In this document: positions 3,596-57,419 of the stretch, one piece after another
Layout: every line of letters begins with the position of its first letter
How positions within the stretch are numbered: position 1 is the first letter of the stretch
Virus record (IMG/VR): IMGVR_UViG_3300018914_000034
Coordinates: 1 to 58,174 of that record
DNA from: a virus
Lineage: Duplodnaviria > Caudoviricetes
Length of the DNA: 58,174 bases
Strand: one strand, 5' to 3'
The notes under the pieces: model-generated
Database searches by the model: none
The model's input: only the letters and a program-made list of their open reading frames with translations
Told to the model about the DNA's origin: nothing
Position numbers and translations under genes: made by a program

Positions 3596-3608
3596 ACGAG
3601 CCCGAAGC

Positions 3609-3642
3609 AAAAAAGCCCGCCCAGGCAAGAGTCGAGGCGGGC
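3609..3642 (-). terminator. Terminator ending the late/lysis operon
   Basis: GCCCGCC/GGCGGGC stem with six T on the minus strand, downstream of the holin. Confidence 0.65.
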
Positions 3643-3721
3643 AAGTCTGGCAGGAAACACCCAGGAAGGGCATCTCCGCCGGCGGTGTACCTTCCGTCGG
3701 AGGAACTCGCGCGGGCAGCCT

Positions 3722-5545: not shown

Positions 5546-5565
5546 GGAGATCTCCTGTGGACATG

Positions 5566-5588
5566 AAAAAGCCGCCCTGACGGCGGCT
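5566..5588 (-). terminator. Intrinsic terminator between the fibre genes and the lysis cassette
   Basis: AGCCGCC-CTGAC-GGCGGCT hairpin followed by TTTT on the minus strand. Confidence 0.65.
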
Positions 5589-6282: not shown

Positions 6283-9200
6283 AGGAGGTTTCCTCCGAGA
6301 TCCGCGTGAGAGAGACGACCTCGGCCGTCCAGACAATCCGCTTTCCGGCGACGCCGGTCACTTGAACGGCCATCGACTGAGGCGTCGCATCTGGAACGAA
6401 AGAAACGTCCATGGAGGCCGTTTGCTCGAGATGGGTTGAAACGACGGCCGCCCCGGCGACGCTGCCGCCGGCGGATCGGCCGAAGCGGCATTGAAGCGTG
6501 TAATGCCCCAACTCCGTCCCGGCCGCCCCGTACTCCCGCGCCATGACGTTGATCGTCGCCGTCCCGCGCTCCCGCTCTCCGACGAGGATCCTCGGCGCGA
6601 GGTTCGTCGGCGTCGCGTCGGTCGTGACCCCTCGGAAGATCATCTTCTCCGGAGGCCGCGGACCGTAGCGGTTCATGGCGTCGAGGCCGTTCACGGCGTC
6701 CCGCTGGACGACCGCCTGAGCGCCGCCGGCCATGAGCCGGAAACCGGCCTGAGAGGCGACGGCCTTCATGTTGTCGTTCGATAGCTCCGGAAGGCTCGCC
6801 GTGTCGAAATAGGCGACGCGGCGAAGCCCCTTGAACTCCGAGACCCCGTCGCCGGTCCCAACGACGAGAACGTCGCGAGACGTGTCGACGTCGAGATCCC
6901 AAACGGAGGCCGAGGTTCCGCCAAGGAACGCCTTTGCGCCGTCCTGAAAGAGCGGAAGCTCGTCGCGATACATCTTCGCGATCTGTGCCGGCGTCGGCGC
7001 GTAAGCCGTCGCGCGGAGGAGCGCGAGCGAGCCGTTCGCGAGCGGAAGGGTGCCGGCGATCTGAAGGCCGATCCGGAAGAAGGCCGAGAGATTGGAAAGG
7101 CTGTTCGCCTCCCCGATCGTCGCGACCCTCAATCCATCGACCCAAAGCTCGAGCGTCCCCGCCCTCCGGAGAGCGACCGCAAAATGCCAAACCCCATCGT
7201 TGTAGGGATTGGCCGAGACGGCGTTCGTCAGCGTCGCGCCGTTGTTGGTCGATCGCCAGATGATCCGGCCCAATGCGTCGAAACGGCAGAGGAATCCATA
7301 TCCCGCCACGCCGTTCCCGCGCTCGAAGAACGTTTGATCGCCGACCGTCCCCTTGAACCAGAAGGGGAGAGCAAAGTCCCCGGTCCCGAAATCAAGATCC
7401 GAGACATAAGGCTGCTCAAGATAGTTCGCCGCGGAGAAGCCGGAGAGCGCGACGAGATCCGCCCCCGTCGCGACCGCCGTCCGCGAGAGCGTTCCGACGA
7501 CGGGAAGCGGCTTCCCCTTATAGGAGCGATCGAGGAGAGCGACCTTGATCGAAACGTTGTCCACGACGAACGTTCCCGCCGTCGACTTCCGGAAAAGGAT
7601 GTAATGCGTCGTGCGATCCGCCGTGAATTGCGCGACGATCTTTTGAGCGCCGTTCGGTCCGAGGTTGACATGCCAAGCGCCGCCGCCGTTGGCGGTTTGC
7701 GTGACCGCCACGGATGCCCCGCCGCTGATAACCTCGCATTCAAAGATATACGTCTGCCCGACGACGCACGTAATCGCCTGCTCGACGCTCACGACATTGG
7801 TCCCGTCATGGGTGACGGAAAGCTGCCCGTTCGAGACGGTCGCGTCCGATGTTCCCGCTTTGGTGACGGTCCATCCGGTCAGCCCTCCCGAAAAGTCGCC
7901 ATTCGAGACAAGGTTCGCGGTCCCGGTCACATTGCCCGTCGCGCCATCGCAAAGCCAAGCCCCGCGAATGTCCCCCGGTTGCCAACCTGTCGCATAGGCG
8001 AGCGCGGTATAGGAGACCATCGAATCGGCCTTGTTCCATTTGCTCCGCGCGATCTGCGTGAGAGCGACTTGGCTCCCTTGAGCGGCGTCCCCATTCGGAA
8101 AGACCGCGAGCGCGGTCGCGACGGCCGTCGGAAGCTTCGGATAGACAGAGGAGCCGCCGGAATATGTGTAATACTCCCTCTGCCATGCCGTCATGGTTAG
8201 ATCCGCATAGGGGATCGGACCGGCCCGGAAGCCATGTTCGGAGGCGATATCCTGCTCGATCAAATCGCCGTCGGCCGTGATGTGAGGACGGAGCGGCGTC
8301 CCGTTGCCGAGGCCGATATCATAGACCGCGCCGGTCGGATGAATCACGCTTGTTCCGCCAGCCGTTGCGACCGCCACCGTGGGGACCGGGAGTCCGGCCC
8401 CATCGAGCGGAGCGCCGGGAAGCGGCCGAGCGTGAACGCCGAAAACGTTACGGTCGACGATTCCCGCTTTGAAGTAGCCGCCGCCGTTCCCGCTCCACGC
8501 CAGCGTGTTGGCGTTCCTGAGTGCCAGGCCGAGCGGATACTGTCCCCAAAAGGACGAAGCGACATAGTTCGCCGTATCGTTCGGGAAGTCGAGGATGCTC
8601 AAGCCGCCGACGCCGGAGCCTCCGGCCATGCCGCCGCCGACATAGATCCGGCCGTTCACGGCAAAGACGGAGGTGAGGTTGATATTCGTCCCGATCGTCC
8701 CGGTCTGCCGGAGCGCATTGTTCCCGGCCGCAAAGAAGGTCATCCAATGTCGCGGAACGCCGGTCGCGATGTCGAAGTCCGTCAAGTCATATATCACGAG
8801 AGCGGGAACGGACGACGAGACGTTGTTGCGGAGGACGATCGCCGCGATCTTCGGGAAGTCGCGCTTCGCGCCGCGCGTCGCCGTGTTCAGCGCCTCTTGA
8901 TACCATGACGTGCCGGAGCATTTCGTCGTCCACTCGCCGCCGTCGCTGTCGCGGCGCGTGTCGTAGATGAATACGTCGACGATATCCGTCGCCGCGGCGA
9001 GAACCTTTTGCAAGGCCGGATAGAGGAGCGTCGTCGCGGGGCCGGAGCCGGCCACGCCTGCCGAGGCCGCGGCTTGCGCCGCCGAGGCCGCCGCGCTGTC
9101 CGAGAACGCCTTGAGCGCGTCCGCGAAAGTCGAAACGGTCTGCCATGCCTCCGTCGTGCCGACCGGACGGTATTCGAGGCCGGTCGGCCCCGCGCGGAAC

Positions 9201-9466
9201 TCGGCTGATCGGCCGCGGAGATCGACGCCGGCCGCAAACGTGCCGTCCGGCTTCTGGATCTCGAGGACGGTCCCGGCCCAGCGGTGATTGACGCCCATCG
9301 TCGCGAGAAGCTGGGTCACTGCTTCTCGGTCGCTCGTGATCGACTGCGCAATCGTCGTGGCGCCATCGACCACGGCCTTGAAGGCAGTCCTATGGCGCTC
9401 GGCTGCCGCGAGCAGCTTCGTTGCAAGCTCAGCAACTGCACGAAGCTTGGTGGCTTCATCGGTCAT
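6272..9466 (-). CDS. Large tail fibre/receptor-binding protein (carbohydrate-binding + LamG-like domains)
   Basis: 1064 aa from ATG 9466 (AAGGGGA RBS); SAAASAAQAAASA linker, NLVSNGDFSGGLTGW CBM-like motif, LDFGTGDF..YNDGVWHF..ELWVDG LamG motif. Confidence 0.85.
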   Translation of the reverse strand: MTDEATKLRAVAELATKLLAAAERHRTAFKAVVDGATTIAQSITSDREAVTQLLATMGVNHRWAGTVLEIQKPDGTFAAGVDLRGRSAEFRAGPTGLEYRPVGTTEAWQTVSTFADALKAFSDSAAASAAQAAASAGVAGSGPATTLLYPALQKVLAAATDIVDVFIYDTRRDSDGGEWTTKCSGTSWYQEALNTATRGAKRDFPKIAAIVLRNNVSSSVPALVIYDLTDFDIATGVPRHWMTFFAAGNNALRQTGTIGTNINLTSVFAVNGRIYVGGGMAGGSGVGGLSILDFPNDTANYVASSFWGQYPLGLALRNANTLAWSGNGGGYFKAGIVDRNVFGVHARPLPGAPLDGAGLPVPTVAVATAGGTSVIHPTGAVYDIGLGNGTPLRPHITADGDLIEQDIASEHGFRAGPIPYADLTMTAWQREYYTYSGGSSVYPKLPTAVATALAVFPNGDAAQGSQVALTQIARSKWNKADSMVSYTALAYATGWQPGDIRGAWLCDGATGNVTGTANLVSNGDFSGGLTGWTVTKAGTSDATVSNGQLSVTHDGTNVVSVEQAITCVVGQTYIFECEVISGGASVAVTQTANGGGAWHVNLGPNGAQKIVAQFTADRTTHYILFRKSTAGTFVVDNVSIKVALLDRSYKGKPLPVVGTLSRTAVATGADLVALSGFSAANYLEQPYVSDLDFGTGDFALPFWFKGTVGDQTFFERGNGVAGYGFLCRFDALGRIIWRSTNNGATLTNAVSANPYNDGVWHFAVALRRAGTLELWVDGLRVATIGEANSLSNLSAFFRIGLQIAGTLPLANGSLALLRATAYAPTPAQIAKMYRDELPLFQDGAKAFLGGTSASVWDLDVDTSRDVLVVGTGDGVSEFKGLRRVAYFDTASLPELSNDNMKAVASQAGFRLMAGGAQAVVQRDAVNGLDAMNRYGPRPPEKMIFRGVTTDATPTNLAPRILVGERERGTATINVMAREYGAAGTELGHYTLQCRFGRSAGGSVAGAAVVSTHLEQTASMDVSFVPDATPQSMAVQVTGVAGKRIVWTAEVVSLTRISEETSYAA

Positions 9467-9479
9467 GGTGATCGTCCCC

Positions 9480-10565
9480 TTAAGATGCGGAACCGGTGCC
9501 GGAGAGCGCCGGGGCGTCGTCGAGGATGCCCCCGCCGACGGACCGGCCACGATCGTCTTTGCCGGTGCCCTTGCCCGGCTGCTTGAGAGTGAGGGTGGTC
9601 AGGAAGCCCGCCTGGCGCGTCCAGCTGTGCTCGACACTATCGATGCGATACATGCCGGACACACCGGCGCGGATGGTGACGAGGCACGGCGCCTCGGCGA
9701 GGGCTGCGGGATCCCCGTCGATCGTGACGGTCCCCCCGCCCTTCTCGCGCTCGGCTTCCCTTTCCATGGCGGAGCTCAGGCGCCCAGCGGTGTCCTGGTC
9801 GGCAGCGCTGAAGCGGGAGACGCCGACGCCGACCTCGGATCCGACCGCCCTCACCTCCCCGCGCTGGTTCTTCCACTTGGCCTCGGCTACGTCGTACCAG
9901 AGGGCCTCGAACTTCTGGCGCTGCGGCCGGCCGTCATCAGGGCCGAGATCCCATGCGACGATGTTGCCCGGTCGAGTGGCACGGATCGTCTGCAACGGCT
10001 GCCCCGAGGCGGATAGCCCCACCCCACGGGGCACGAAAACCGCGGTCCTGCCGATCACCTTGAAGGTGGCGCCGAGTTCGCGCGCCGTGCGCTGCGCCCA
10101 GTGCAGGAAGCTCTCTCGGCCGAGATACCAGTAGTCTCGCCGGATGCGGCCCAAATCGCCGCCGAACTTGAGCGTGTAACCTTCCGGAGCGAAGGCGCCG
10201 GCGGCCTCCTCGAAGCTCGCCTCATCCTTGTGCTTTTCCTTGCGGTCCTTCAGCCCACCGCGTAAGTCGGCGGCCTTGCCCGTTATCACGATCTCCTGAC
10301 CGCCTCCGCGCGCGCCCCGTGAGCGCGGTTCGTCGAGGACACCCTTGAACAGAGCGCGGCCGGGCACCTCATTGCGCCACATCTCAAGAGTGATCGCATC
10401 CCCGCTCGATGGGAAAGCGATCTGATCGTCCATATCGTCGAGGACAATCTGGCAGATATCCGAGGAAGCGCCGGAGGCGTCCTTGATCGAGGCGGATATT
10501 ACGGTGGCCAGCAAGTCACCCGAAACCGGGCGCTCGTTGATAGCAAGCGAAATGTGCGACGGCAT
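9480..10565 (-). CDS. Baseplate hub, P2 gpD-like
   Basis: SDICQIVLDD, ESFLHWAQR.A..LGATFKV, GMYRIDSVEHS..GF.TTLTL; follows U and X. Confidence 0.88.
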   Translation of the reverse strand: MPSHISLAINERPVSGDLLATVISASIKDASGASSDICQIVLDDMDDQIAFPSSGDAITLEMWRNEVPGRALFKGVLDEPRSRGARGGGQEIVITGKAADLRGGLKDRKEKHKDEASFEEAAGAFAPEGYTLKFGGDLGRIRRDYWYLGRESFLHWAQRTARELGATFKVIGRTAVFVPRGVGLSASGQPLQTIRATRPGNIVAWDLGPDDGRPQRQKFEALWYDVAEAKWKNQRGEVRAVGSEVGVGVSRFSAADQDTAGRLSSAMEREAEREKGGGTVTIDGDPAALAEAPCLVTIRAGVSGMYRIDSVEHSWTRQAGFLTTLTLKQPGKGTGKDDRGRSVGGGILDDAPALSGTGSAS

Positions 10566-28695: not shown

Positions 28696-30368
28696 CGTTT
28701 CCTCCTGGCTTTCGGCGCGGGCTCGGGCTCCGAGGAGCCGCCCCCGTCCCCGCCGCGCACCCGCTCGAAGACGTTTGGCAGGTTCTTCGCTCTCAGCTTT
28801 TCGGCTTCACGCGCGCGCTGCTCGATCACGTCGTCGACGTCGAGGCCGTTCTCGGCACACTCGATCTCAAGAGTGGATGTGCCGTTGACCAGCCGCTCGG
28901 TCTGAGCCTCGGCCGCTTTCTTGTCGTCGGCCGTCGGCTTCGGTGGGCCCTGCCATTCCGCCCAGGTGAGCGAGTGGCGATTGGCTAGGAAGGCGCGGTA
29001 GCCGCCCTTGAGCGGGATGCGCCCCTCCCCGATCTCCTCGTCGAGCCAGCTCTCGTACACGGCCTGGTAGATCGGTGCCGCGATGCGCTTGCGCCGGCGC
29101 AGCACGATCGGCCAGATCGTCGCCCCTTCCATGCGGGTGCTGGAATAGGTCGCCCCGTCATGGTCCATCGCATAGGACGAATAGGTAACGCCGAGCGCGC
29201 GGGCGATTTCCCGCTTGAGATCGTTCGAGAACGGCAGATAGTCGGGACCAGGGGTGCCGGCCGTGAGCAGCTTCAGCTCCTCGCCCGGCGCCAGGTGCGA
29301 GACCTGAGCCGCGTTGTCCAGAGACAGGCGGCTCTCCTTGGCCTTGTCGAGGCGAGCCCCGAAGTAGTCGAGGAAGTCGTTGGTAAGATCCTCGTCCTCA
29401 AGAGCCGAGAGAGCCTCGAAGGCATCGGCGCTCGGCTCCGGCGATGTCAGGGTCGCGGCGAACACCGTCTGCAGGACGGCCGTCGCAATGGTCGCCTCGC
29501 GCAGCTGGTGATAGTTCGCCTGGGTGCGCAGGGCCGAGGCGATCACCGAGATGCCGCGCACATCCTCGGCGTCCCACGGATCGAAGGCGTGGACGACCAG
29601 AGTGCGTCCCTCGGCATCGCGCGCCCTGTAGTCGCGCTTCACCTCGATCCCTGACTGTTTCTCCTTGAAGCGGTAGGCGACCGGACGGCCATTGGCGTCG
29701 TGGATGACGCCCGAGTGCAGGCCGATGAACTCATCGGTGTCGCGCACGAGCCGGATTGGCGAGGTCAGGCACAGCTTCGTGCCGGACTGGATCCCGTAGG
29801 GCCGGCGCTGGTCCGGCGCGAAGAACGAGATCACGCCCACGGCCTCGCCAAAGGCGACCGAGTGGCGCAGCGCCACGTCGACCAGCTGGTCGAGGGTGAA
29901 CTTGCCTCGGGCGTCGACCTCGTCCGGGTTCTCGGCATAGCGGCGCCACCGGTTCTTGACCAGCTTGACCCACTCGGCCGCTTCCTCGTCGGAATAACCC
30001 AGCTTCTTGAGATCCGGCGACGGCCGCAGCTTCAGGCCGTCGCCGACGGTGTCGGCGAGAACCTGGTCGACCGCGCCCTTGAGGTGACCCGAGTTCTGGA
30101 TGAAGTCCAGCGCAAGCGCCGAGATCCGGTCCCACATGCGCCGGTTCTCGTCCCGGCTGTCGACGAGGCTCGCCTGACGCATGGCGAGAACCCCGTTCGA
30201 GCTGTCGCGCAGCCACCGGGCCGTCGTACGGCGCGACGGGGTGGACCCGACGGGAATCGTGGCGACTTCCTTCGAAGGAGAGGCCTTGCGGGCCCGGGGC
30301 GACGCAGACGCAGTTCGAGCGGCGGCTGTGGAGCGGCCCTTCGATCCGGTCTTGGTCACCTGGGTCAT
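28692..30368 (-). CDS. Portal protein (lambda gpB family)
   Basis: VG.GL.L.P.PD, VRGIS, L.PGEEL, IARALGVTY, TYSS.R; ATGA overlap with the terminase stop. Confidence 0.95.
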   Translation of the reverse strand: MTQVTKTGSKGRSTAAARTASASPRARKASPSKEVATIPVGSTPSRRTTARWLRDSSNGVLAMRQASLVDSRDENRRMWDRISALALDFIQNSGHLKGAVDQVLADTVGDGLKLRPSPDLKKLGYSDEEAAEWVKLVKNRWRRYAENPDEVDARGKFTLDQLVDVALRHSVAFGEAVGVISFFAPDQRRPYGIQSGTKLCLTSPIRLVRDTDEFIGLHSGVIHDANGRPVAYRFKEKQSGIEVKRDYRARDAEGRTLVVHAFDPWDAEDVRGISVIASALRTQANYHQLREATIATAVLQTVFAATLTSPEPSADAFEALSALEDEDLTNDFLDYFGARLDKAKESRLSLDNAAQVSHLAPGEELKLLTAGTPGPDYLPFSNDLKREIARALGVTYSSYAMDHDGATYSSTRMEGATIWPIVLRRRKRIAAPIYQAVYESWLDEEIGEGRIPLKGGYRAFLANRHSLTWAEWQGPPKPTADDKKAAEAQTERLVNGTSTLEIECAENGLDVDDVIEQRAREAEKLRAKNLPNVFERVRGGDGGGSSEPEPAPKARRKR

Positions 30369-32467
30369 CGGTTCTTCCATGCGTTCCGGCGGGAGGCCCG
30401 ATCTTCACGGGACTTCCTCACCTTTGCGGGTTTCTCGAACGGGTCCTTCGCCTCGGCCGCCTCGAACAGATCGGGCTCGGCGCGCTGCCCATGCACCTGC
30501 ACGAGCAAGTCGGCCCAGCGATCGGCGTTGAGACGGCGCTTGTGTACGAGGTGCCAGCCGAGCGCGAAGGCGTAGACCGTGACGTCCCACCAATCGTTCT
30601 TGCGCCCGACGATCTTCTTCCATTCCCGCTTCGCATTCGCCTTGATCAGGCGCTTGCGCTGGTTGGAGGACTGCGCATCCTCGTCCGCATCGACCAGCCG
30701 TTCCGCCGTGAGCTCCTTGGCGAAGTCCTCGTCGCAGAGTTCCGACGTCAGGTGGTAGGTGTTGCGGGGCCATGCACCGGTCGCGTCAGGTCCGTCGACG
30801 AAGTTCGCCAGACTGGCAGCGACCTCGGTTTTGACGTCATACAGACCCACCGGATAGAGCATGACCTTGGCGACCACGCGCTTGCGGGCATCCTTGATGT
30901 CCTTCTTCGTCGGCGTACCGAGCCATGGCAGGCCATGCTGATGGCGGCCGTCGAGGGCATAGACGTTCGGGCGGCCGGCGCAGAACCGATAGACGCGATC
31001 CGTGGCAAAGCCCGAATCGACCCCCGACAGGTCAATGCCTTTCTCGACGGTGCCGGCAGTCGGATATGTACGACCGAGCGCGTCGGCGAGCTTGATCCAG
31101 GGCTCGTCGGTTTGATCCGGCGCACCCTCGAAGATCTCGCGGTCGATAAGCCAGTATTGACCTCGCGGGCCAAGCGCCAGGCAGGCCCACTTGATGCCGT
31201 AGCCCTGAACGTCGGCGGTCGAGATCACCAGGCCTGCCTCGGCTGGAATTCGCCGCTGCGGATAGTAATGCTGGCGCGAGGCCTCGACGATCTTTTCCCA
31301 TTCGATGATCACTCCGCCCGGATCGTAAGGCTCGGCGAGATCCTGCTGGAAGAACACGCGCAGCTTCGTGGTGTCGCCCTCGGCCTCCTCCCAGCGCGCC
31401 CAGATGTCGGCCCATTTCTCGCGCGGCGCATAGGCCGCCCAGAGGTGATAGCTCGGCTGCCAGTCGCGGCAGCGGCCCTCGCATGGCGGGCAGATCCAGC
31501 GCTCGATCTCGTGCTCGGGGATGGTCTCCGGCACCGCGTCGGCACCCTCCGGAACGCGCGTCGCAATCCAATGCGCCCGCGCCATCATGTCGGGCTTGTG
31601 ACCGTCGAGGATCACTCCGTCGCAGGCGAGGCAGCGCATGTGCACCGGCAGGCCCTGCTCCGGATCGGCCGCGCGCATCTGCTCGAACTTGAGCGGCTGG
31701 AAGGCCCTGCAGTGCGGGCACGGCAGGTAGAAATAGCGCCGGTCCCCGGCCTCGAAGTCGGCGGTGATCACGCACTCGCCAGCAATGCCAGGGGTCGAGC
31801 CCTGCCATTCCTTGGCCATGTCGCCGTACATCTTCTGGCGAGCCCGGGCCTGGTCGCGCGGGGAGCCGCGGCCGTCCACGTCCTTCGGGTAGCCGGTCAC
31901 CTCGTCCATGGCGAGGTTCTTGATCGACACCATCTGCAGGCCCTTCGACGAACCTGCATTGACGATCTGAGCAAAGCCGCCGGCGAAGCGCTTGAACGAC
32001 GTGGTCGAGCCCTGCTCGTCGCGGCTGTTGACCGGCAGAACCTTGTGGGCAATGCGGGGGCTCGCTTCGATGGTCGGCTGCAGCTTGACCCGGTTGAACT
32101 TGGTCGCTTCTTCCAGGGTCGGCAGCACGATCATCATCGAGCCCGGCGCCTGGTCGACAGTGTAGCCAAACCAGTTCTCGATGGCGGTCGACTTGCCGAG
32201 CTGCGCCGCCCAGCGCGCCGTGACGCGACGAGCCGGGTGGTCGGGATGAAGGCAGTCCTGCGGCTCGCGCAGGTAAGGAACGCGGGCGGTCAGGAATGGC
32301 CCTGGCCACGGCGATCCCGATTCCGCCGAGACGACGCGGTAACGGTCGGCCCATTCGCTGATGGTGAGGTCCTCGGCCGGACGGCTCGCCGCCTCCAATC
32401 CCCGGAACAGAATCTCCGCGCCGTCGGGCAGCAGCGGGAACTGCGCTCGGGCGTCGTGGTAGGTCAT
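30365..32467 (-). CDS. Terminase large subunit (lambda gpA family)
   Basis: TISEWADRYR, AQLGKS Walker A, MDEV Walker B, STP, CPHC, TADVQ, VDSG, NDWWD. Confidence 0.97.
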   Translation of the reverse strand: MTYHDARAQFPLLPDGAEILFRGLEAASRPAEDLTISEWADRYRVVSAESGSPWPGPFLTARVPYLREPQDCLHPDHPARRVTARWAAQLGKSTAIENWFGYTVDQAPGSMMIVLPTLEEATKFNRVKLQPTIEASPRIAHKVLPVNSRDEQGSTTSFKRFAGGFAQIVNAGSSKGLQMVSIKNLAMDEVTGYPKDVDGRGSPRDQARARQKMYGDMAKEWQGSTPGIAGECVITADFEAGDRRYFYLPCPHCRAFQPLKFEQMRAADPEQGLPVHMRCLACDGVILDGHKPDMMARAHWIATRVPEGADAVPETIPEHEIERWICPPCEGRCRDWQPSYHLWAAYAPREKWADIWARWEEAEGDTTKLRVFFQQDLAEPYDPGGVIIEWEKIVEASRQHYYPQRRIPAEAGLVISTADVQGYGIKWACLALGPRGQYWLIDREIFEGAPDQTDEPWIKLADALGRTYPTAGTVEKGIDLSGVDSGFATDRVYRFCAGRPNVYALDGRHQHGLPWLGTPTKKDIKDARKRVVAKVMLYPVGLYDVKTEVAASLANFVDGPDATGAWPRNTYHLTSELCDEDFAKELTAERLVDADEDAQSSNQRKRLIKANAKREWKKIVGRKNDWWDVTVYAFALGWHLVHKRRLNADRWADLLVQVHGQRAEPDLFEAAEAKDPFEKPAKVRKSREDRASRRNAWKNR

Positions 32468-33096
32468 TGCAGGGCGCTCGATTCCGGCCGGTTAAGGGGT
32501 TCGCCGGCGAGTTCGGGAGCCATGCGCCGGCGGCGGATGGCATCGAGCCGGTCCAGGATCTCGCGGTTGAACACCTCGAGCCCGCGCCGGGAAAACGTCT
32601 TGAGAGCCAGGCGCACCGTGCGCTCGTCCCAGCCGTACTTCATGGCAAGCGTCGAGGCCTCGGTTTCGATGGCGCGTTCGAAGGCGCTCTGCATCAGGGC
32701 GACGGCGTCACGCCCGGCCTGGTCCACTTCGGCAACGACGGTCAGCTGCCCGCGGCGCTCGGCCAGATCCATCTCGCGCAGCTCTGCGTCGGCATTGGCC
32801 TTGCGTTGAGCACCGTTCACCTGAGAGCCCGCAAAGCGGGTCGGAGTCTGACTGGAGAAGGGCTGGGCCGAGGCTGCGGCCCGGCTTACCGTTGCGGCCG
32901 ATCGGAGGCGGATGTTCTCGGCGCGATGGGCCGCGAGCTTTTCGAAGTCCACCAGGTTCGACTTGCCCTCGGCGCGCGTGGGCAGGGCTTCCGCATGCTG
33001 CTTGATGTAGCGCGACAGGGTCGAACGGTCGACCGGATCGCCGGATGCGGTCAGCCGCGCTGCCGCCTCCGTGATCGAAATCCAATCCTCCGCCAT
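32464..33096 (-). CDS. Terminase small subunit (Nu1-like)
   Basis: N-terminal winged HTH (ISITEAAARL..VDRSTLSRYI), ADAELREMDLAERRGQL..V; immediately upstream of terL. Confidence 0.85.
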   Translation of the reverse strand: MAEDWISITEAAARLTASGDPVDRSTLSRYIKQHAEALPTRAEGKSNLVDFEKLAAHRAENIRLRSAATVSRAAASAQPFSSQTPTRFAGSQVNGAQRKANADAELREMDLAERRGQLTVVAEVDQAGRDAVALMQSAFERAIETEASTLAMKYGWDERTVRLALKTFSRRGLEVFNREILDRLDAIRRRRMAPELAGEPLNRPESSALQ

Positions 33097-35258: not shown

Positions 35259-37061
35259 CTAGAAGGTGTGTGAGGAAGGCCTGAACTCCGGCCGAATGCG
35301 CACGCCATGGTAGACCGAAACCGACGACTTGCCCTTTTCGAAGCCGTGCCGTGCCGCCGCCTTCGGCAGCCGTCGATTGAAGGTGTTGGCCTGCCAGGGT
35401 GTGAGCGCGGCGCGTTTGCAGTATTCGTTGAAGGCCATGTACAGGTCGCCCGCCGATTCAGTATCTCCGGATATCTTCGTCACATCAAGCGCTGCCCGGA
35501 TGAACGCTCCCAGGAGATCGCTTTCATCCCGATATTCCTGCGTCGCCGCCAGCACCTCGTCTGGCGGATCGAGCCGCCCCCGCGCGAAATAGTCGAGAGC
35601 GCCAGCGATCAGCCAATTGAGAATGCCGGAGCGTTCCGCCCACAGCTTCTCCGGCAGGCTCTTGTCGCGCTCGGAGATGGGGATCTGCTCGTCGAAGGGT
35701 ACCAGTGACACGCGCCGCCAGATGCCGTCGTCGTCGCCCTTGATCGGCGGCTTGCGGTTCATGGAGATCACCAGCTTGAAGGTCGGATAGACCTCCACGA
35801 ATTCCTCGTTGAGGCGCCGCACCAGGATAGGCTCGCCGGATGTGAGCTGCTTGATCAGGCTCTCGTCGAACGACACGCCTTCCTTCGGCTCGGCGGAGCG
35901 CACGAGGCGCGCGCCTGGCAGGCGCACGAGGTCCGGCGTCGCCTCGGCCCCCTTGCGCCTGTCCTCACCCACCAGCGTCGCGATCGGCACCGAGGTGGCG
36001 TAATCGCCCAGGATCTTCGACACGATGTCCACCAGCGTCGACTTGCCGTTCGCCCCCTCGCCATGGAACAGCATGAAGACCTGCTCCTTGGTGAGAGCTG
36101 TGAGCGCGTAGCCGAAGAACCGCTGCACGTAGTCGCGCACCGCCTGGGACGGCAGGATCCGCACCAGGAACCTGTCGAAAACCGGACAGCCCGCAGCCGG
36201 ATCGTATGCCACCGGCCCTATCTTCGAGATCAGATCGTTGCGATCATGGTCGCTCAGCGCCACACGCCAGGTCGTGATCATTCGGACGGAATCCGGGTCA
36301 GGGTTTTCCGGGTCGGGCTCCTCGACCTGGATGAAGCGCAGCGTGCCGTTCTCCACGTTGAAGGCGAGCGGGTCGGCGTCGAAATCCCGCACGGGCTTCG
36401 ACAGGAAGGCCACCGCTTCGTTGAGCATGCCGTCGATCTTGCCCGAGTTGCCGGAGGTATTGGCAAAACGCCGGCGCGCCGTCTGGCGGGCCTGCAGGCC
36501 CTTCAGCACGCTCTTTCCGTCGGCGATCGCCTGCTTGAGCGGCTCGATCTTGGCTTTCACCCCTTTGATCCTTGCCTCCCGCTCGCCCTTGATCAAGTTG
36601 ATGTCGTTCTCGAGGTCGGAGATCTCCGCGTGGAGTTCCGCCAAGCGCTCGCGGGCGGCTTCCGCCGCCTCGATCACCTGCCGCTCCCGCGGCGTCGGCT
36701 CCAGAACATAGGCTTCGAGGGCGATGGCCTCCACGACCTTGTGGCACATCGGGCGGGTGCCGCAGCCGTCGATATCCTCCTGCCAGCGGCGGCCGTCGTA
36801 GACGTGCCAGCCGATGTTCTGCACATGCACGATGTCGTCGCCGTACCGGATGCGCAGCCGGCGGCTGTTGCCGATGTCGTTCTGAGGCTCGGCAGCGCAA
36901 AGGCGCACCAAGCTCCAATCGATATCCTCCGTGATCGCGACCTCGTCCACGAACTCGTCATCCGGGTCGGGTGCCATCCTGGGGGAAGCCGGGGGCGCCG
37001 AGTTCACGGCCGGGGCGTTCTCGACAATGGAGGCGATGCGTTTGGTGGGATCTTCAGTCAC
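35259..37061 (-). CDS. P4-family/D5 SF3 primase-associated helicase
   Basis: NDIGNSRR D5-N, FNVENGTL, GEGANGKST Walker A, IKQLTSGE, N.KP.I...DDGIWRR; GGGAGGG RBS with GTG. Confidence 0.95.
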   Translation of the reverse strand: MTEDPTKRIASIVENAPAVNSAPPASPRMAPDPDDEFVDEVAITEDIDWSLVRLCAAEPQNDIGNSRRLRIRYGDDIVHVQNIGWHVYDGRRWQEDIDGCGTRPMCHKVVEAIALEAYVLEPTPRERQVIEAAEAARERLAELHAEISDLENDINLIKGEREARIKGVKAKIEPLKQAIADGKSVLKGLQARQTARRRFANTSGNSGKIDGMLNEAVAFLSKPVRDFDADPLAFNVENGTLRFIQVEEPDPENPDPDSVRMITTWRVALSDHDRNDLISKIGPVAYDPAAGCPVFDRFLVRILPSQAVRDYVQRFFGYALTALTKEQVFMLFHGEGANGKSTLVDIVSKILGDYATSVPIATLVGEDRRKGAEATPDLVRLPGARLVRSAEPKEGVSFDESLIKQLTSGEPILVRRLNEEFVEVYPTFKLVISMNRKPPIKGDDDGIWRRVSLVPFDEQIPISERDKSLPEKLWAERSGILNWLIAGALDYFARGRLDPPDEVLAATQEYRDESDLLGAFIRAALDVTKISGDTESAGDLYMAFNEYCKRAALTPWQANTFNRRLPKAAARHGFEKGKSSVSVYHGVRIRPEFRPSSHTF

Positions 37062-37077
37062 GCGCCCTCCCTATAAA

Positions 37078-37138
37078 TACACACGCCATACACAAAAGAC
37101 ACTTGACGCCCTGTAACGCCGTGTGTACAACATACACA
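37078..37138 (+). promoter_or_regulatory. hicAB promoter with operator palindrome
   Basis: TTGACG(37103)-17-TACAAC(37126); TGTGTA-CAACA-TACACA inverted repeat 37122-37138; extra TACACA half-sites at 37078 and 37089. Confidence 0.75.
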
Positions 37139-37156
37139 TAGACAGGGGGCAGAGAG

Positions 37157-37336
37157 ATGGACTCGAAGGACTTGATCAAGGAGCTGGAGCAGGACGGTTG
37201 GTTCTGGCACTCGACGACGGGCAGCCACCGCCACTTCAAGCACCCCACCAAGCCCGGCAAGGTCACGGTGCCCCACCCGAAAAAGGACATGCACCCCAAG
37301 ACGGTGAAATCGATCAGGAAGGCGGCGGGGATCTAA
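37157..37336 (+). CDS. hicA: HicA toxin (mRNA interferase), absent from the ORF track (59 aa)
   Basis: MDSKDLIKELEQDGW....GSHRHFKHPTKPGKVTVPHPKKD...TVKSIRKAAGI. Confidence 0.95.
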   Translation: MDSKDLIKELEQDGWFWHSTTGSHRHFKHPTKPGKVTVPHPKKDMHPKTVKSIRKAAGI

Positions 37337-37363
37337 CCCTGCCCCAACCGAAAGGAGAGAACC

Positions 37364-37777
37364 ATGAGACCCTATGTTGCGCTGATCCACCTTCCCGAAA
37401 ACGGCTCGTCCTGGGGCGTCACCTTCCCCGACGTCCCTGGCTGTGTGTCCGCCGGTGACAGCTTCGAGGAAGCGGTCGAGAACGCCCGCGAAGCCCTCTC
37501 CGGTCACCTCGCCGCGCTCCAGGCCGATGGTGATCCGATCCCTGAGGCACGGACCTACAAGCAGGTTCGTGACGACGAGGACGTCCAAGCCGAGGTGCGG
37601 GAGGGCGCGACTCTGCACCTGGTCGAGCCCCGCGTGATCGCTGCCGAGCGCGTCAGGGTGAACATCACCATCGACAAGGGACTTCTGCGCCGAGCCGATG
37701 AAACTGCTGAGGCTAAAGGCATAACCCGATCGGCATTCATCGAGCAGGCGCTCGATCGTCTGATTGAGGTGTCCTAA
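37364..37777 (+). CDS. hicB: HicB antitoxin with C-terminal ribbon-helix-helix
   Basis: WGVTFPDVPGC.SAGDS.EEA..NA.EAL; RVNITIDKGLL..TRSAFI; AAGGAG RBS. Confidence 0.95.
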   Translation: MRPYVALIHLPENGSSWGVTFPDVPGCVSAGDSFEEAVENAREALSGHLAALQADGDPIPEARTYKQVRDDEDVQAEVREGATLHLVEPRVIAAERVRVNITIDKGLLRRADETAEAKGITRSAFIEQALDRLIEVS

Positions 37778-37780
37778 CTC

Positions 37781-38605
37781 ATGAAGGGCGCGAAACATCC
37801 CAAGCGGAGAGATGGCAATTTGGCTCCTCTGATAGGTGGCATCCTCGTCAGCGTACTGGTGGCAAGCTATGCCCTGTTGATGATGTGGGGTGCAGAGGTG
37901 TGCGGCGGTGCAAAGGTGAAGGAAGCCCTGCTCGCCGATGGTCGGATGGGCTGTGTAGAATACTGGTTCAATCGGTATCAGACCATCCTCACCGGATTTG
38001 CAGCCTTGCTCGCTGCCTGGATGGCGTCTCTGCCGGTCAGAGGACAACTCAAGGAGATGTCTCGGCAGTCTGCCGCCTCTGCGAGACCCGCTATGATTGA
38101 ACTCGCAAAAGCCCTGGAGGAGGAAAGAGAGTACATAGCGGAGGCCATGTTCGACCTGATCGGTGTTAACCGCTTGCAGAGAGAGTATGATGATCGAGCA
38201 TCCTGGCCGGAAATCTACTCCGAGTGGTCCGATCGTTGCTGGAACCTTGTTGGCAGGTGTCGGGACGTCGATGAATTTCTGTCGGCAATTTCCCGAAGGA
38301 ACCCCGAAGCGACAGCACTGAACAGCACCCGAGCAGAGTTGGTGAAATCGATAGGGGCTTTGAGGAACGCACTTCGCGACCTTGGCGAGGCCTTTCAGCT
38401 GCAGACTACCGGACCAGATTATGAAGTGGGCGAGGAAGATATCTCCAAAGCAGAGAGTGATCGGCGACGCCGGACCGTGGAGATCGCATACAAGGCGTGG
38501 ATGGATCAAAGCCGTGGGATGCTCAGACTCCTTTCGACCGAAATTACGGAGGCCTGGACTCGCGTTCGTCAGATGGAGCGATACGCATTGGACCTGGCAC
38601 GCTGA
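37781..38605 (+). CDS. Membrane-anchored helical hypothetical protein co-oriented with hicAB
   Basis: Two N-terminal TM segments (C.EYWFNRYQT.L.GFAALLAA), lower GC, 3 bp after hicB. Confidence 0.8.
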   Translation: MKGAKHPKRRDGNLAPLIGGILVSVLVASYALLMMWGAEVCGGAKVKEALLADGRMGCVEYWFNRYQTILTGFAALLAAWMASLPVRGQLKEMSRQSAASARPAMIELAKALEEEREYIAEAMFDLIGVNRLQREYDDRASWPEIYSEWSDRCWNLVGRCRDVDEFLSAISRRNPEATALNSTRAELVKSIGALRNALRDLGEAFQLQTTGPDYEVGEEDISKAESDRRRRTVEIAYKAWMDQSRGMLRLLSTEITEAWTRVRQMERYALDLAR

Positions 38606-38628
38606 GGCGGCATCGTGAATGCCATTGC

Positions 38629-38928
38629 TCAAGGCCGCACCTCCCGCGCCGCGATCTGCCGGATGAACTCCTCGTGCGGCGCGAGCGCCCGCAGCAGATT
38701 GCTGTAGTCGAGGAAGTTTGCGCATTGACGCTGCACCTCGGCGATCGTGGCGACGCCGACGCTGGTGGGATCGCGCAGGGTGAAGAGGTGGAGCGCGTCC
38801 AGGCTGGAGGCCTCCCGCTTGGCGGCGAGCAGCAGCTCCTCCGCCATCTCGCGAAAGCTCAAGCCGCGCGGGATCTCTGGCACGGCCTCTTGGGCGACGT
38901 CAGGCCTGAGTGCGACGACGATCGTCAT
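38629..38928 (-). CDS. Hypothetical protein (99 aa)
   Basis: ATGA overlap with the primase stop, GAGGGG RBS. Confidence 0.75.
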   Translation of the reverse strand: MTIVVALRPDVAQEAVPEIPRGLSFREMAEELLLAAKREASSLDALHLFTLRDPTSVGVATIAEVQRQCANFLDYSNLLRALAPHEEFIRQIAAREVRP

Positions 38929-40160
38929 GCGGCTTGCCCCCTCAGCATGGTGTTGAAGTCGGTTCCCTGGTCGGCCCAGGCCTCGCGGATGATCCGGCCG
39001 GGCCGCGCGTGGCGGAGCGCAGCCCGGCGCAGGGCGTTCTGGGTGAAGACCGGTTCGCTGTCGCCGTCGCCGAGCAGGAAGAGCTCTTCCACGCTGTCTG
39101 GCACCGGCATGATGTCGGATGAAAAGTCGGGTTCGGCCGATGGAATCATCACCGGAAACGACCGGCCGCGAGCATCGGTGCGGCGCAGGGTCGGATGGCG
39201 CATGGAGTTCATGGCCTTGCCGCCGAGATTGAGCAGGTTGATCGAGGACCAGAAGGCCGCCCCGTCCAGCAGTGGCGAACCCAGCAGGCGCAGGGCCGTC
39301 CAGACCGAGAGCACCGTCTCGATCCCCTCCCCGACGAAGAGCCGCCTCGGCTCCTTGACGCGCACGAGTTCGATCCGGCCGCCGCGCTGTGTGCCGCGCA
39401 CCTTCTTGGCCGGCACGAACTCGCCGGTCTCGCGGTCCGGCACCATAGTCTTGCCCGACTCGGTGGAGAGATCGATCCAGGTAGCGTGCAGGCCCGAGAA
39501 ACGCCCATCCGGCCCGATGATGGCGGCGAGCATGGCCGGCCCCACATGGATCGGCTTCACGCCCTTGCCGACGCTGTCGAAGAGGGGATGGCGGGGAGCA
39601 AAGCGCAACAGGGCTCCGTCCGGGCGCTGCAGCTTGCGGTGCGTGAGGTAAGCCTCGGCGGCCGTGCCCCAAATCGGCTTGGCATCCTTCCAGAACCCGT
39701 AGCAGCGCTCCCGCTCCCGCTCGCGATAGGCGTTGAGCTCCTTGGCGCGGGCCTCCTCCTCGCGGGCGTTCCTCTCGCGCCAGGCGCGAGCTTCTTCCTC
39801 CCGCCGGGCACGGTCCTCGTCCGATTCCCGCGCCACCTTGCCGGGCGGCGGGCGGCGGGTCAGGATCTCGCATGCGGTGAGGAAGTCGCAGGCCTCCAGG
39901 ATCATGCACAGGTCGATCACGTTGCCGCCGCTGCGGCCGCTGGCGTCGCTGCACTTGCGACAGTTGAATAGGTTTTTGTTGAGGTTGACGGAGAAGCGGT
40001 CGGCATTCGGCTTCTCGGTCCCGCCGCAGCGCGGGCAGGCGCCGACCTTCTCATAGGACCCCTTGAGCCGCGGCATGCGCGGATGCGTCAGCAGCGACGC
40101 GATCTGCACCGCTCGCGCTTCCTCCATCCACCGCTGGAACTCCGGGTCAGGCGCGCGCAT
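38925..40160 (-). CDS. Primase: Zn-finger + Toprim-like
   Basis: GACPRCGG..DRF..FNCRKC Zn ribbon, AEAYL..R, GEGIET.LS, LLGDGD, GTDFN. Confidence 0.88.
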   Translation of the reverse strand: MRAPDPEFQRWMEEARAVQIASLLTHPRMPRLKGSYEKVGACPRCGGTEKPNADRFSVNLNKNLFNCRKCSDASGRSGGNVIDLCMILEACDFLTACEILTRRPPPGKVARESDEDRARREEEARAWRERNAREEEARAKELNAYRERERERCYGFWKDAKPIWGTAAEAYLTHRKLQRPDGALLRFAPRHPLFDSVGKGVKPIHVGPAMLAAIIGPDGRFSGLHATWIDLSTESGKTMVPDRETGEFVPAKKVRGTQRGGRIELVRVKEPRRLFVGEGIETVLSVWTALRLLGSPLLDGAAFWSSINLLNLGGKAMNSMRHPTLRRTDARGRSFPVMIPSAEPDFSSDIMPVPDSVEELFLLGDGDSEPVFTQNALRRAALRHARPGRIIREAWADQGTDFNTMLRGQAA

Positions 40161-40582
40161 CAATCGGTTCCCTTCACCGTGACACGGATCCAGCACCGCT
40201 GCTCCGGGCAGGTGCAGCGCACGCGCTGACGGATGCGATCCTCCTCGCTGTGAGCCGGTCCGACGGGAACGGTGCGGGTCGGGCCGCAGCCATAGGCGCA
40301 GTCGTGCGGGCCGGCGCGGCGCGAGGCGGTTTCGATCATGGTTTCCGGCACGCGCATCTCGAGGGCGACGTCAGAAACGCTCTCGCCCTTGCTGAGGCGC
40401 TCGACGGCGGCCTTCGCGCCCTCGGCCGTGAGGCGGAAGCGCCGCCGCTTCGGCCGGGTGTCCTTGACAGGCTTGCCGCTGGCGTCCTTCGGTCGAGGAC
40501 CCACCGGCGTCATGCGCGTCTTGATGTAGTCCGGGATGCCTCCCGGTCCCCAATCGACGTCGTTCCAGGACCAGACCGCCAT
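40160..40582 (-). CDS. Hypothetical HTH-containing protein
   Basis: RLSKGESVSDVALEMRVPETMI HTH-like segment; Cys-containing C-terminus; TGATG overlap with the primase. Confidence 0.6.
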   Translation of the reverse strand: MAVWSWNDVDWGPGGIPDYIKTRMTPVGPRPKDASGKPVKDTRPKRRRFRLTAEGAKAAVERLSKGESVSDVALEMRVPETMIETASRRAGPHDCAYGCGPTRTVPVGPAHSEEDRIRQRVRCTCPEQRCWIRVTVKGTD

Positions 40583-55247: not shown

Positions 55248-55341
55248 TAGCAAGGTGGAGGCCGCTCGTATAACCACCCTTCTGATTTGCTTCAAGCCCT
55301 TTTGCCGAAAAAAGCGGGGGCGCGACAGAAATGAGGATGCG

Positions 55342-56340
55342 GTGAACGACGCGACCCGGCAGGAATGGATTGTGGATGAGGATGGCGCGGGCGAGCGGCT
55401 GGACCGAGTGCTCGCGCGGCTCCAGGGTAGCCTGTCGCGCAGCCGCCTGCAGGCGCTGATCCGCGACGGCCAAGTCACCCTCGACGGCGCGCCGGTCCTC
55501 GATCCGAACCGCAAGGTCCCCGGCGGGGCCCGCCTCGGGCTCACCGTCCCGCCCCCGGCACCGGCGGAGCCTGCCGGCGAGGCGATGGCTCTCGCCGTCG
55601 TCCACGAGGACGAGGACGTCATCGTCATCGACAAGCCGGCCGGCCTCGTGGTCCACCCGGCGGCAGGGCACGATTCCGGCACCCTCGTGAATGCGCTGAT
55701 CGCCCATTGCGGCGAGAGCCTGTCCGGCATCGGCGGCGTGAAGCGGCCCGGCATCGTGCACCGGCTGGACAAGGACACCTCCGGCCTGCTCGTGGTGGCC
55801 AAGAACGATCTCGCCCATCAGGCGCTCGCGGCGCAGTTTGCCGATCACGGGCGAACGGGCCCCCTGGAGCGCGCCTATCTCGCCATCGCCTGGGGCGTGC
55901 CGGGGCGGCGGCGCGGAACCGTGGAGGCGGCCCTTGCCCGCTCCACGCACAACCGCGAGAAGATCGTCGTGGTGGGCGAGGATCGCGGACGCTACGCCAT
56001 CACGCATTACGAGGTTCTGGAGGATCTGCCGCCGGCGCAGCCGCTGGCGAGCCTGGTGCGGTGCGAGTTGGAGACCGGACGCACCCACCAGATTCGGGTG
56101 CATATGGCCCATCTCGGGCACCCGCTCCTGGGCGATGCCACCTATGGATCCGGATTCAAGACGAAAGCGAACCGCCTCTCGGCCGAGGCCAGGGAGGCCC
56201 TTTCCACCCTGAACCGGCAGGCGCTGCATGCGGCCGTTCTCGGCTTCGAACATCCCCGAAGCGGCAGGCTCCTGCGTTTCGAGAGCCCGCTTCCGCCGGA
56301 TATGGCGGCCCTTCTCACGGCCCTGCGCGGGGGCGCTTAA
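55342..56340 (+). CDS. rluD: RluA-family pseudouridine synthase with S4 domain
   Basis: RLDR.L..SRS..Q.LI S4 domain; KPAGLVVHP, RPGIVHRLDKDTSG, ETGRTHQIRVH, RQALHA; GTG start with GAGGA. Confidence 0.9.
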   Translation: MNDATRQEWIVDEDGAGERLDRVLARLQGSLSRSRLQALIRDGQVTLDGAPVLDPNRKVPGGARLGLTVPPPAPAEPAGEAMALAVVHEDEDVIVIDKPAGLVVHPAAGHDSGTLVNALIAHCGESLSGIGGVKRPGIVHRLDKDTSGLLVVAKNDLAHQALAAQFADHGRTGPLERAYLAIAWGVPGRRRGTVEAALARSTHNREKIVVVGEDRGRYAITHYEVLEDLPPAQPLASLVRCELETGRTHQIRVHMAHLGHPLLGDATYGSGFKTKANRLSAEAREALSTLNRQALHAAVLGFEHPRSGRLLRFESPLPPDMAALLTALRGGA

Positions 56341-56528
56341 GCGTCAATCCGTCGCAAAATGAGGCCACGCTGGCACCCTTGCGGATTTGGAGCGTTCACC
56401 ACGTCTTGAAGCCTGACGCCTCTATTCGGACAAGGCGGGACCGCTTATATAAGCAAGTTGGGCGGCCGGCCAGAGAGGGGGCCGCCTCAGGCTTGCCTCA
56501 TGGTGAGGGAGCCAAAGGAGGAGAGACT

Positions 56529-57419
56529 ATGGCTACAGCGCTTCCGGTGCTTGCCAACGAAGGGGGCCTTTCGCGCTATCTCGACGAGATTCGTCGTTTC
56601 CCCATGCTCGAGCCGCATGAGGAATACATGCTCGCCAAACGCTGGCGCGAGCATGGCGACCGCGAAGCAGCCCACAAGCTCGTCACATCCCACCTGCGCC
56701 TGGTCGCCAAGATCGCCATGGGCTACCGCGGCTATGGCCTGCCGATCAGCGAGGTGGTGTCGGAGGGCAATGTCGGCCTCATGCAGGCCGTCAAGCGCTT
56801 CGAACCCGACAAGGGCTTCCGCCTCGCCACTTATGCCATGTGGTGGATCAAGGCGGCGATTCAAGAATACATCCTGCGGTCCTGGTCGCTCGTGAAGATG
56901 GGCACCACGGCGAACCAGAAGAAGCTGTTCTTCAACCTGCGCAAGGCCAAGGGCCGCATCTCCGCCCTGGAGGAAGGCGACCTGCGTCCGGACCAGGTGA
57001 AGCAGATCGCCACCCAGCTCGGCGTGACCGAGCAGGACGTGGTGGAGATGAACCGCCGCCTCGGCGGCGACGCATCGCTCAACGCCCCCCTGCGGGACGA
57101 GGGCGAGGGCGGCGGCGAATGGCAGGACTGGCTCGTCGATCAGAGCCAGAGCCAGGAGCAGGTGCTCGTCGAGGAGGAGGAGGGCCAGAACCGGCTGAAG
57201 GCCCTGCGCAATGCGCTCTCCGTGCTCAACCCGCGCGAGCGCAGGATCTTCGAGGCACGCCGCCTTTCGGACGACCCGATCACCCTGGAGGAGCTCTCGA
57301 CCGAGTTCGGCGTCTCCCGCGAGCGCGTCCGCCAGATCGAGGTGCGCGCCTTCGAGAAGGTGCAGGAGGCGGTCAAGAAGAACCTGACGCAGATCGAGAC
57401 CTCGTCGGCCGAAGCCTGA
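56529..57419 (+). CDS. rpoH: RNA polymerase sigma-32 factor
   Basis: SHLRLV.KIAMGYRGYGLP, RpoH box QKKLFFNLR, GVSRERVRQIE; AGGAGG RBS. Confidence 0.97.
   Translation: MATALPVLANEGGLSRYLDEIRRFPMLEPHEEYMLAKRWREHGDREAAHKLVTSHLRLVAKIAMGYRGYGLPISEVVSEGNVGLMQAVKRFEPDKGFRLATYAMWWIKAAIQEYILRSWSLVKMGTTANQKKLFFNLRKAKGRISALEEGDLRPDQVKQIATQLGVTEQDVVEMNRRLGGDASLNAPLRDEGEGGGEWQDWLVDQSQSQEQVLVEEEEGQNRLKALRNALSVLNPRERRIFEARRLSDDPITLEELSTEFGVSRERVRQIEVRAFEKVQEAVKKNLTQIETSSAEA

Follow-up and report, generated by a model that had tools for sequence, protein, structure and literature searches.

The window analysed here, that is, the whole 58,174-nt stretch of virus record IMGVR_UViG_3300018914_000034 (IMG/VR; Caudoviricetes), has a minus-strand replication operon in which three plus-strand genes, hicA, hicB and a membrane-protein gene, orf274, sit backwards. 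Opposite these genes, the operon strand carries a single open reading frame (ORF), the bridge ORF, whose start overlaps the stop of the operon gene before the insert and whose stop overlaps the start of the helicase gene after it. Among unique homologues of orf274, 37 of 52 are stop-free in the antisense frame, against a summed expectation of 262.7 stops; only 3 of 117 control ORFs are stop-free. The openness of the frame and its phase lock with the cargo are very probably under selection.

Geometry of the bridge ORF

The bridge ORF is codon-aligned with its cargo. That is, the starts of hicA, hicB and orf274 and the coordinate 37058, where the bridge ends, are all equal to 2 mod 3, with spacers of 27 nt between hicA and hicB and 3 nt between hicB and orf274. 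In such an alignment, the antisense stops are the TTA, CTA and TCA codons of the sense frame, and none of the three genes contains any. The aligned minus frame has no stop between 37058 and 38632 other than the one at its end; the remaining minus frames have 13 and 21 stops and the plus frames 4, 25 and 16. A first-pass annotation, made from the sequence alone, had described a 524-codon minus-strand ORF starting at TTG 38632, aligned with the three genes, with this phase lock, these spacers and no TTA, CTA or TCA; the ORF is present as described, and the coordinates and codon counts agree. That annotation also had the frame open across the region upstream of hicA, where indeed no stop occurs; the chance of that 96-nt piece being open in phase is 0.27. 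Read from ATG 38725, the frame extends over 37058-38725 (555 aa), and from stop to stop it covers 37058-38899 (613 codons).

At the entry junction, TTG 38630-38632 overlaps the TGA at 38629-38631 of a 98-aa gene (TTGA, 4 nt). At the exit, the bridge TGA at 37058-37060 overlaps the helicase GTG at 37059-37061 (GTGA, 4 nt), and the Shine-Dalgarno (SD) sequence of the helicase gene, GGGAGGG at 37065-37071, lies inside the 3' part of the bridge. The spacing of starts and stops, with an SD upstream at each end, fits a translationally coupled operon ORF; spacings of -4 and -1 nt are the commonest coupled arrangements, according to passages of PMC12548453.

Inside the bridge, the operon strand has two weak hairpins that resemble terminators, each with a T-rich tail (37105-37120 and 38133-38150, both minus); one is about 45 nt short of the helicase start. 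Shuffled sequence gives 1.1 such hairpins, close to the two observed. If the hairpins were real, translation across them would serve as anti-termination.

The bridge of the window has no Pfam family. An exhaustive phmmer search of its protein against 1.84 billion representatives gave four proteins, all of which match the part antisense to hicAB; the part antisense to orf274 had no match in that search. One of the four, P0003 (723 aa), is a C5 cytosine methylase (Pfam, 2e-41) whose frame goes on stop-free along the strand opposite a hicB-hicA pair and the region upstream of that pair. This arrangement is like that of the window but comes from a different genome, in which bridge and upstream gene are fused.

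Antisense openness in the window and in the orf274 family

The length of the bridge ORF by itself is unremarkable in the window. TTA, CTA and TCA make up 55 of the 12,567 codons of 33 provisional genes, ten of which have none. The earlier caveat that codon-aligned antisense frames are often open in GC-rich DNA is thus borne out. A case in point is a 901-codon stop-free frame at 30104-32809 on the plus strand, antisense to the gpA terminase gene (30365-32467, minus). The terminase gene has 700 codons, is rich in G and C at third codon positions (GC3) and lacks all three codons; its antisense frame is an ordinary shadow ORF, in contrast to the bridge.

The cargo genes differ in what their codon usage predicts. 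hicA and hicB are GC3-rich, and their probabilities of having no antisense stop (P0) are 0.80 and 0.58. In contrast, orf274 has a GC3 of 0.62 and is rich in A at third positions: of its other four-fold codons, 26 of 104 have A as the last base, and the A-ending codons are missing precisely from CTN (0/23), TCN (0/12) and TTR (0/7), or 0/42 together. No antisense stop is observed where 7.8-9.2 are expected, with P0 from 1.2e-4 to 1.2e-3. The lower value goes with 7.8 expected stops and the pooled codon usage of the window's three low-GC3 genes, and the higher with the calibrated expectation. Those three genes have about as many such codons as expected: 7 vs. 6.2 in the SDH protease gene, 5 vs. 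5.1 in the cI-like gene and 4 vs. 5.2 in ORF 43027. A naive third-base shuffle gave a P0 of 0 in 20,000 and was not trusted until calibration on low-GC3 control genes. The SDH-protease gene, which the first-pass annotation had taken as an internal control with a broken antisense frame, carries three CTA, three TCA and one TTA. The probability of an open frame, a computation which that annotation had proposed, divides the cargo: openness is expected over hicA and hicB and is not expected over orf274. The non-coding pieces of the bridge are open with P ~0.17, and phase lock of three genes by chance has a probability of 1/9. Because the case was picked after being seen, these window-level probabilities by themselves prove nothing, and independent comparative evidence was sought.

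Homologues of orf274 were collected from scans of metagenome and viral contigs by protein similarity only, giving 78 loci, which are cited by L numbers. Several related loci, among them L139, L145, L153 and L165, stem from prophage records of isolate genomes. TTA, CTA and TCA in the sense frame were counted in each homologue, and the number expected was derived from how often A occurs at the remaining four-fold and two-fold sites of that gene. Shortened genes (L011, L014, L015, L021, L023, L032, L035 and L045) were left out, as were near-identical copies (L017-L020, L024, L031, L037, L040, L043, L047, L051, L141, L143, L146, L147, L151, L156, L158, L159, L163 and L164). L040, a dropped copy of L041, has one antisense stop. 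The controls are non-family ORFs from the same loci with low GC content at first and third codon positions. Their ratio of observed to expected stops is 0.73, and Fisher's test of family against controls in the first set gives 5.6e-11. The 15 homologues that are not stop-free have 1-17 antisense stops, mostly near their own expectation. A second scan replicates the result: 23 of its 25 new loci are stop-free, and so are 19 of the 21 left when near-duplicates are removed.

The depletion is specific to the phase, with counts of 7, 199 and 116 in phases 0, 1 and 2, and to the codons, as the share of A in other codon families is equal in stop-free and remaining members; in both comparisons the groups are defined by the outcome. 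Lineages are independent of one another: the family tree is a star whose terminal branches have a median of 1.19 changes per site, with stop-free members found throughout. Where two homologues have the same residue, they share its codon as often as expected at random, and synonymous sites are saturated. Thus, openness has been kept through saturating divergence. The comparison of TTA, CTA and TCA use among homologues, suggested by the first-pass annotation, comes out in favor of its idea.

The peptide read from the bridge frame shows no such constancy. For 13 stop-free pairs, antisense amino-acid identity is 0.14-0.23, the same as in simulations that keep the sense conservation and draw synonymous codons at random (z from -1.0 to +1.6). 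Opposite the invariant motif of the sense protein, third positions are free to vary and the antisense peptide is not constant. The reading as a conserved antisense protein was rejected because identity is no higher than simulated. It seems from these comparisons that openness is selected and the polypeptide is not.

In stop-free loci, the orf274-family gene is placed in a phage early operon, between genes that share one orientation and opposite to them. Its neighbours include genes for C5, Dam-like and MT-A70 methylases as well as ParB-like, primase-like and replication-initiator O-like genes. Junctions in these loci were scored against frame-matched controls; a scan for "doubly coupled ORFs", which these controls replaced, was too permissive (121 matches, obvious non-genes among them). 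At the entry, 26 of 36 loci have an in-frame start that overlaps the stop of the gene upstream (NTGA or TGATG), compared with 14 of 72 control frames, i.e., the other two operon-strand frames of the same loci (P 1.5e-7). Entries with an SD core (GGAG, GAGG or AGGA) number 20/36 vs. 5/72 (P 5e-8). At the exit, 33 of 36 evaluable loci have the stop at -4 to +15 nt from where a long ORF starts, as do 45 of 102 control frames (P 3.8e-7); the overlap is 4 nt in 20/36 loci and 1 nt in three. The junctions of L009 were read directly in the sequence. The junction evidence is supportive and by itself not decisive.

The phase lock recurs as well. Seven loci have two to four phase-locked cargo genes under one bridge: the window locus, L057, L149, L150, L154, L169 and L054. 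In L057, L149, L150, L154 and L054, one bridge covers two genes and all cargo is in one phase; in L169, it covers four in-phase genes, the family gene and three DUF982 genes. Phase-locked cargo in related loci thus includes DUF982, in three copies, and also DUF1488. The first-pass annotation had held that GC richness does not explain the phase lock and the coupled ends and had linked the open frame to helicase expression; the recurrence of openness, junctions and multi-gene phase lock in relatives agrees with it.

Members with antisense stops, where their flanks could be judged, sit differently from stop-free ones, L052 excepted. L044, L030 and L168 adjoin co-oriented genes, L049 is among host genes 198 and 348 nt off, and L008 and L028 are far from likely genes. 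L008, the closest homologue of orf274, has nine antisense stops. Interrupted relatives had been named beforehand as evidence that would speak against the bridge, but L008 lies outside an operon, and the argument does not apply to it as it was worded.

A second, unrelated family of small transmembrane (TM) proteins is also embedded backwards in the same phage group. The TM gene of L012 (5100-5555, plus) has its own bridge (5046-5567, minus), and that of L056 (3321-3923, minus) likewise (3312-3962, plus); each bridge has 4-nt overlaps with both neighbours. In L149, a single bridge ORF is common to a TM gene at about 2164-2892 (plus) and the orf274-family gene. L050 has two mutually open, codon-aligned, low-GC3 ORFs at 9504-10556 (minus) and 9084-10346 (plus), with one and two stops where about 11 are expected; this pair may be a further embedded gene with its bridge.

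Table 1. Coordinates of the bridge ORF, its cargo and the flanking operon genes in the window.
Feature	Coordinates	Strand	Basis or remarks
Bridge ORF, TTG to TGA, 524 codons	37058..38632	-	codon-aligned antisense to orf274, hicB and hicA; crosses hicA upstream region
SD-like GGGAGG	38640..38645	-	7 nt upstream of TTG 38632, within last codons of 98-aa gene
Divergent region	37062..37156	both	plus: presumed hicAB promoter and 5' untranslated region; minus: last 32 codons of bridge
hicA toxin (mRNA interferase family), first plus-strand cargo gene	37157..37336	+	Pfam HicA_toxin PF07927 1.2e-21
hicB antitoxin, in phase with hicA and orf274	37364..37777	+	HicB_lk_antitox PF15919 2.1e-28; RHH_1 1.4e-05
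orf274, 274-aa membrane-protein cargo gene	37781..38605	+	homologues, alignment, AlphaFold2 model, codon counts
D5_N/DUF5906 primase-helicase gene	35259..37061	-	Pfam D5_N 4.8e-21, DUF5906 5.7e-09; GC3 0.85
98-aa gene, no family	38629..38925	-	GC3 0.89; TGA 38629-38631 overlapped by bridge TTG
Primase-like gene (DUF7146/Toprim/zinc ribbon)	38925..40196	-	Pfam DUF7146 1.3e-18; GC3 0.87

Explanations for an open antisense frame

We think that the bridge ORF is probably translated and selected only for being open, its translation keeping the operon coupled and shielding the operon RNA from Rho across the antisense insert. The steps would be as follows. The hicA-hicB-orf274 cassette would be moron cargo lying backwards in an operon of primase gene, 98-aa gene, cargo and helicase gene. 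Ribosomes that finish the 98-aa gene would start again at the overlapping TTG 38632, read across the strand opposite the cargo and stop at the TGA overlapping the GTG of the helicase gene. Ribosome cover would stop Rho from terminating on ~1.6 kb of otherwise untranslated, relatively C-rich antisense RNA, and the bridge would keep the helicase translationally coupled. The polypeptide would be irrelevant; selection would act on an open frame that is in phase over cargo and spacers and joined to the gene on either side. According to passages of PMC12548453, untranslated RNA is where Rho loads, with polarity as the outcome; excerpts of PMC12360218 add that Rho suppresses antisense transcription within genes and that translation shields rut sites. 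In 16 of 20 loci, neither neighbouring gene is as C-rich as the RNA of the bridge. From selection for openness, the geometry of the coupled ends and their recurrence, all seen here, we infer the translation of the bridge, the reason for it and which benefit would matter.

Several observations weigh against this proposal. Among RNA runs, none is listed that contains the stretch 36900-38950. TTG is a weak start codon, and the open antisense frame over hicA and hicB alone is as GC-rich codon usage predicts. Many of the stop-free loci come from related phages, and their contexts are not fully independent. Junction backgrounds are high in GC-rich DNA, reaching 44% of control frames at the exit, and the gene calls in the loci follow our own crude rules rather than a gene finder. 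In loci of the RepO type, ATGA is intrinsic to the downstream gene, with 84 of 84 homologues starting Met-Ser as ATGA, and this weakens ATGA as evidence for coupling at those loci. The C-richness effect is small (mean skew +0.055). L052/L156 is a genuine counter-example, as it sits tightly between an HNH gene and a terminase gene and still has 11 antisense stops; L168 and L161, both from viral contigs, carry seven and eight; a bridge is thus not obligatory.

The replication-initiator O-like genes themselves (L055-L138) have the ATGA start at GC contents from 0.39 to 0.68, and the upstream gene often ends on that TGA. To judge from these starts, the O-like family seems to be built for translational coupling to whatever is upstream.

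Other explanations must account for the same data. That the bridge is an ordinary shadow ORF, open by chance since TTA, CTA and TCA are rare in GC-rich DNA, with phase lock and overlaps as post hoc coincidences, is highly improbable. The scarcity of these codons in the window, the frame over the terminase gene and the expected openness of hicA and hicB are all in keeping with it, and NTGA arises easily, as noted in passages of PMC12548453; against it stand the low GC3 and missing stops of orf274, the family statistics with their replication in the second scan, junctions specific to the bridge frame and the recurrence of phase-locked multi-gene cargo. A true antisense overlapping gene, with a functional protein such as a partner or antidote of the membrane protein expressed along with the replication operon, would explain the length of the ORF, its SD and start codon and the operon-like form of its junctions, as well as openness conserved over saturating divergence, and translated long antisense ORFs have been reported in Pseudomonas, according to parts of PMC8850804. 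We regard this as rather improbable. The antisense identities match the simulated expectation, the peptide is free to vary even opposite an invariant sense motif, and neither Pfam nor PHROG matches any of five bridge ORFs, just as the exhaustive search matched nothing antisense to orf274. Moreover, the cargo under bridges is unrelated (hicAB, DUF982, DUF1488 and TM proteins), so that the product would differ by locus.

The signatures of selection for openness would apply equally if openness were selected for another reason, namely silencing or timing of the cargo in lytic growth, or stability of the operon mRNA against RNases. The cargo is of a fitting kind: besides a toxin-antitoxin pair, there is a membrane protein that may be abortive-infection-like, to go by Atlas leads only (scores 0.79-0.83). 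We consider this unlikely, as there is no known mechanism by which translation of one strand's RNA silences the opposite gene beyond transcription itself, and the docking of the stop on the next start, at -4 nt in 20 of 36 loci, points to the downstream gene as the beneficiary. A more far-reaching version of the bridge proposal is that the cargo is a self-contained "stealth cassette", whose opposite strand would be a ribosome conduit with an SD and NTGA as entry and NTGA as exit, and which would spread by inserting precisely at the NTGA where two coupled phage genes meet, with duplication of that junction. The two ends in the window do look alike, GGGAGG-N7-TTGA and GGGAGGG-N3-GTGA. We offer this as a speculation with a small chance of being correct; if it were true, bridge ORFs would make up a general class of frames that annotation has so far passed over, selected for their translation and not for their product.

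Related systems and surrounding genes

The translated bridge proposed here touches on several described phenomena. The length statistics of shadow ORFs in GC-rich genomes are treated in PMC3454372. The frame relation of such ORFs is the same, and the hicA/hicB part of the bridge and the terminase shadow are of that kind; the bridge differs in being open where 7.8-9.2 stops are predicted, in its conservation in 37/52 homologues and in its docking to both neighbours. Antisense overlapping genes (OLGs) are argued, in the excerpts of PMC8850804 and of the review PMC7457138, to be under purifying selection as proteins. The two OLGs of Pseudomonas aeruginosa described in part of PMC8850804 are, like the bridge, long ORFs fully antisense to annotated genes with translation signals. 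The bridge, in contrast, has no detectable amino-acid constraint and spans several unrelated genes and their spacers. With translational coupling, as presented in passages of PMC12548453, the window shares TTGA and GTGA overlaps with SDs at both ends, and relatives share the spacings. The difference is that the middle member of the chain is a frame of 260-750 codons over backward genes instead of a protein gene.

The shielding of RNA from Rho by a translated ORF, whatever it encodes, is the same principle as in the avoidance of Rho polarity in the excerpts of PMC12360218. Among short ORFs there are also cases comparable to the bridge. In the leader peptides tnaC and mgtL, translation matters and the product does not; these ORFs are short and regulatory, whereas the bridge would be a constitutive and very long conduit across an insertion. 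Phage morons are extra genes between phage genes, and the classical ones carry their own terminator. The cargo of the window likewise lies between phage genes, but a simple scan found no plus-strand terminator after orf274. Engineered non-polar cassettes such as aphA-3 have an SD and a start at their end that restart translation of the downstream gene. Those cassettes are co-oriented with the target operon; in the window the cargo is antisense, and non-polarity would be built into the opposite strand.

Full-text literature searches found no description of an open antisense frame that bridges an inserted gene, only shadow ORFs and protein-coding OLGs. Coupling, anti-polarity by translation and morons are known; their combination, and a long ORF selected only for translation, appear to be new. 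If the proposal is right, temperate phages can carry backward toxin-antitoxin and membrane-effector genes inside tightly coupled essential operons and leave these unbroken. The bridge would be a frame selected for translation itself, with no amino-acid conservation and yet far from neutral, lying between "coding" and "non-coding". The usual tests for genes would be blurred, and gene finders, faced with two long frames, may choose the wrong one for annotation. Not every long antisense ORF in GC-rich DNA could be dismissed as a shadow, and whether such ORFs are ever functional would become directly testable. A simple design rule for non-polar antisense insertions would also follow.

On the cargo side, hicA is followed by a hicB with a DNA-binding domain, the arrangement by which HicAB toxin-antitoxin pairs are recognized, and the unit is placed between the primase side of the operon and the helicase gene. 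No consensus sigma-70 promoter upstream of hicA was found by a simple scan, and a HicB query against viral contigs gave no relatives.

The orf274 family is common in GC-rich prophages. Its members have an N-terminal TM helix, a motif C-x-E-[FY]-W-[LF]-[NE]-R-Y-Q with the invariant core E-x-W-x-x-R-Y-Q, a second TM helix and a variable helical C-terminal domain. The AlphaFold2 model of orf274, built on the family alignment, has a predicted local distance difference test score (pLDDT) of 85.7. The family is undescribed in Pfam, PHROGs and PADLOC: 31 members have no Pfam family in common, and neither the family, its co-cargo nor five bridge ORFs have a PHROG or PADLOC family. A tblastn search of plasmids and phages with orf274 gave no match, and a fold search with the model gave none at E <= 0.001, only generic helical bundles. 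An Atlas feature search returned the retron Ec48 effector and putAbiC, to be read as leads only.

The converse assignment, with the antisense strand as the real gene and orf274 as its shadow, was considered and rejected, as the motif and the two-TM layout persist in the 15 members with a broken antisense frame; the confident fold of the sense protein also opposes it. On this evidence, orf274 is taken to be a real plus-strand gene.

The window is a prophage-like contig with a GC content of ~0.65 that carries the gpA terminase gene and a long tail gene. The primase-like gene is the first seen in the minus-strand replication operon, and its stop overlaps the ATG of the next minus-strand gene by 1 nt. 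That next gene, of 98 aa, had no match in Pfam, PHROG or PADLOC. Relatives of the helicase in viral contigs are only ~31-36% identical, too distant to reveal an empty site. Nucleotide searches gave no match in plasmids, and the sole match in phages was a 179-nt primase stretch of Aurantimonas phage AmM-1. The right end of the window (55255-57419) has an rluD-like pseudouridine synthase gene and an rpoH-like sigma-70 gene, so the window takes in host chromosome. The ORF listed at 55707-57419 corresponds to the sigma gene with an out-of-frame extension upstream, over rluD.

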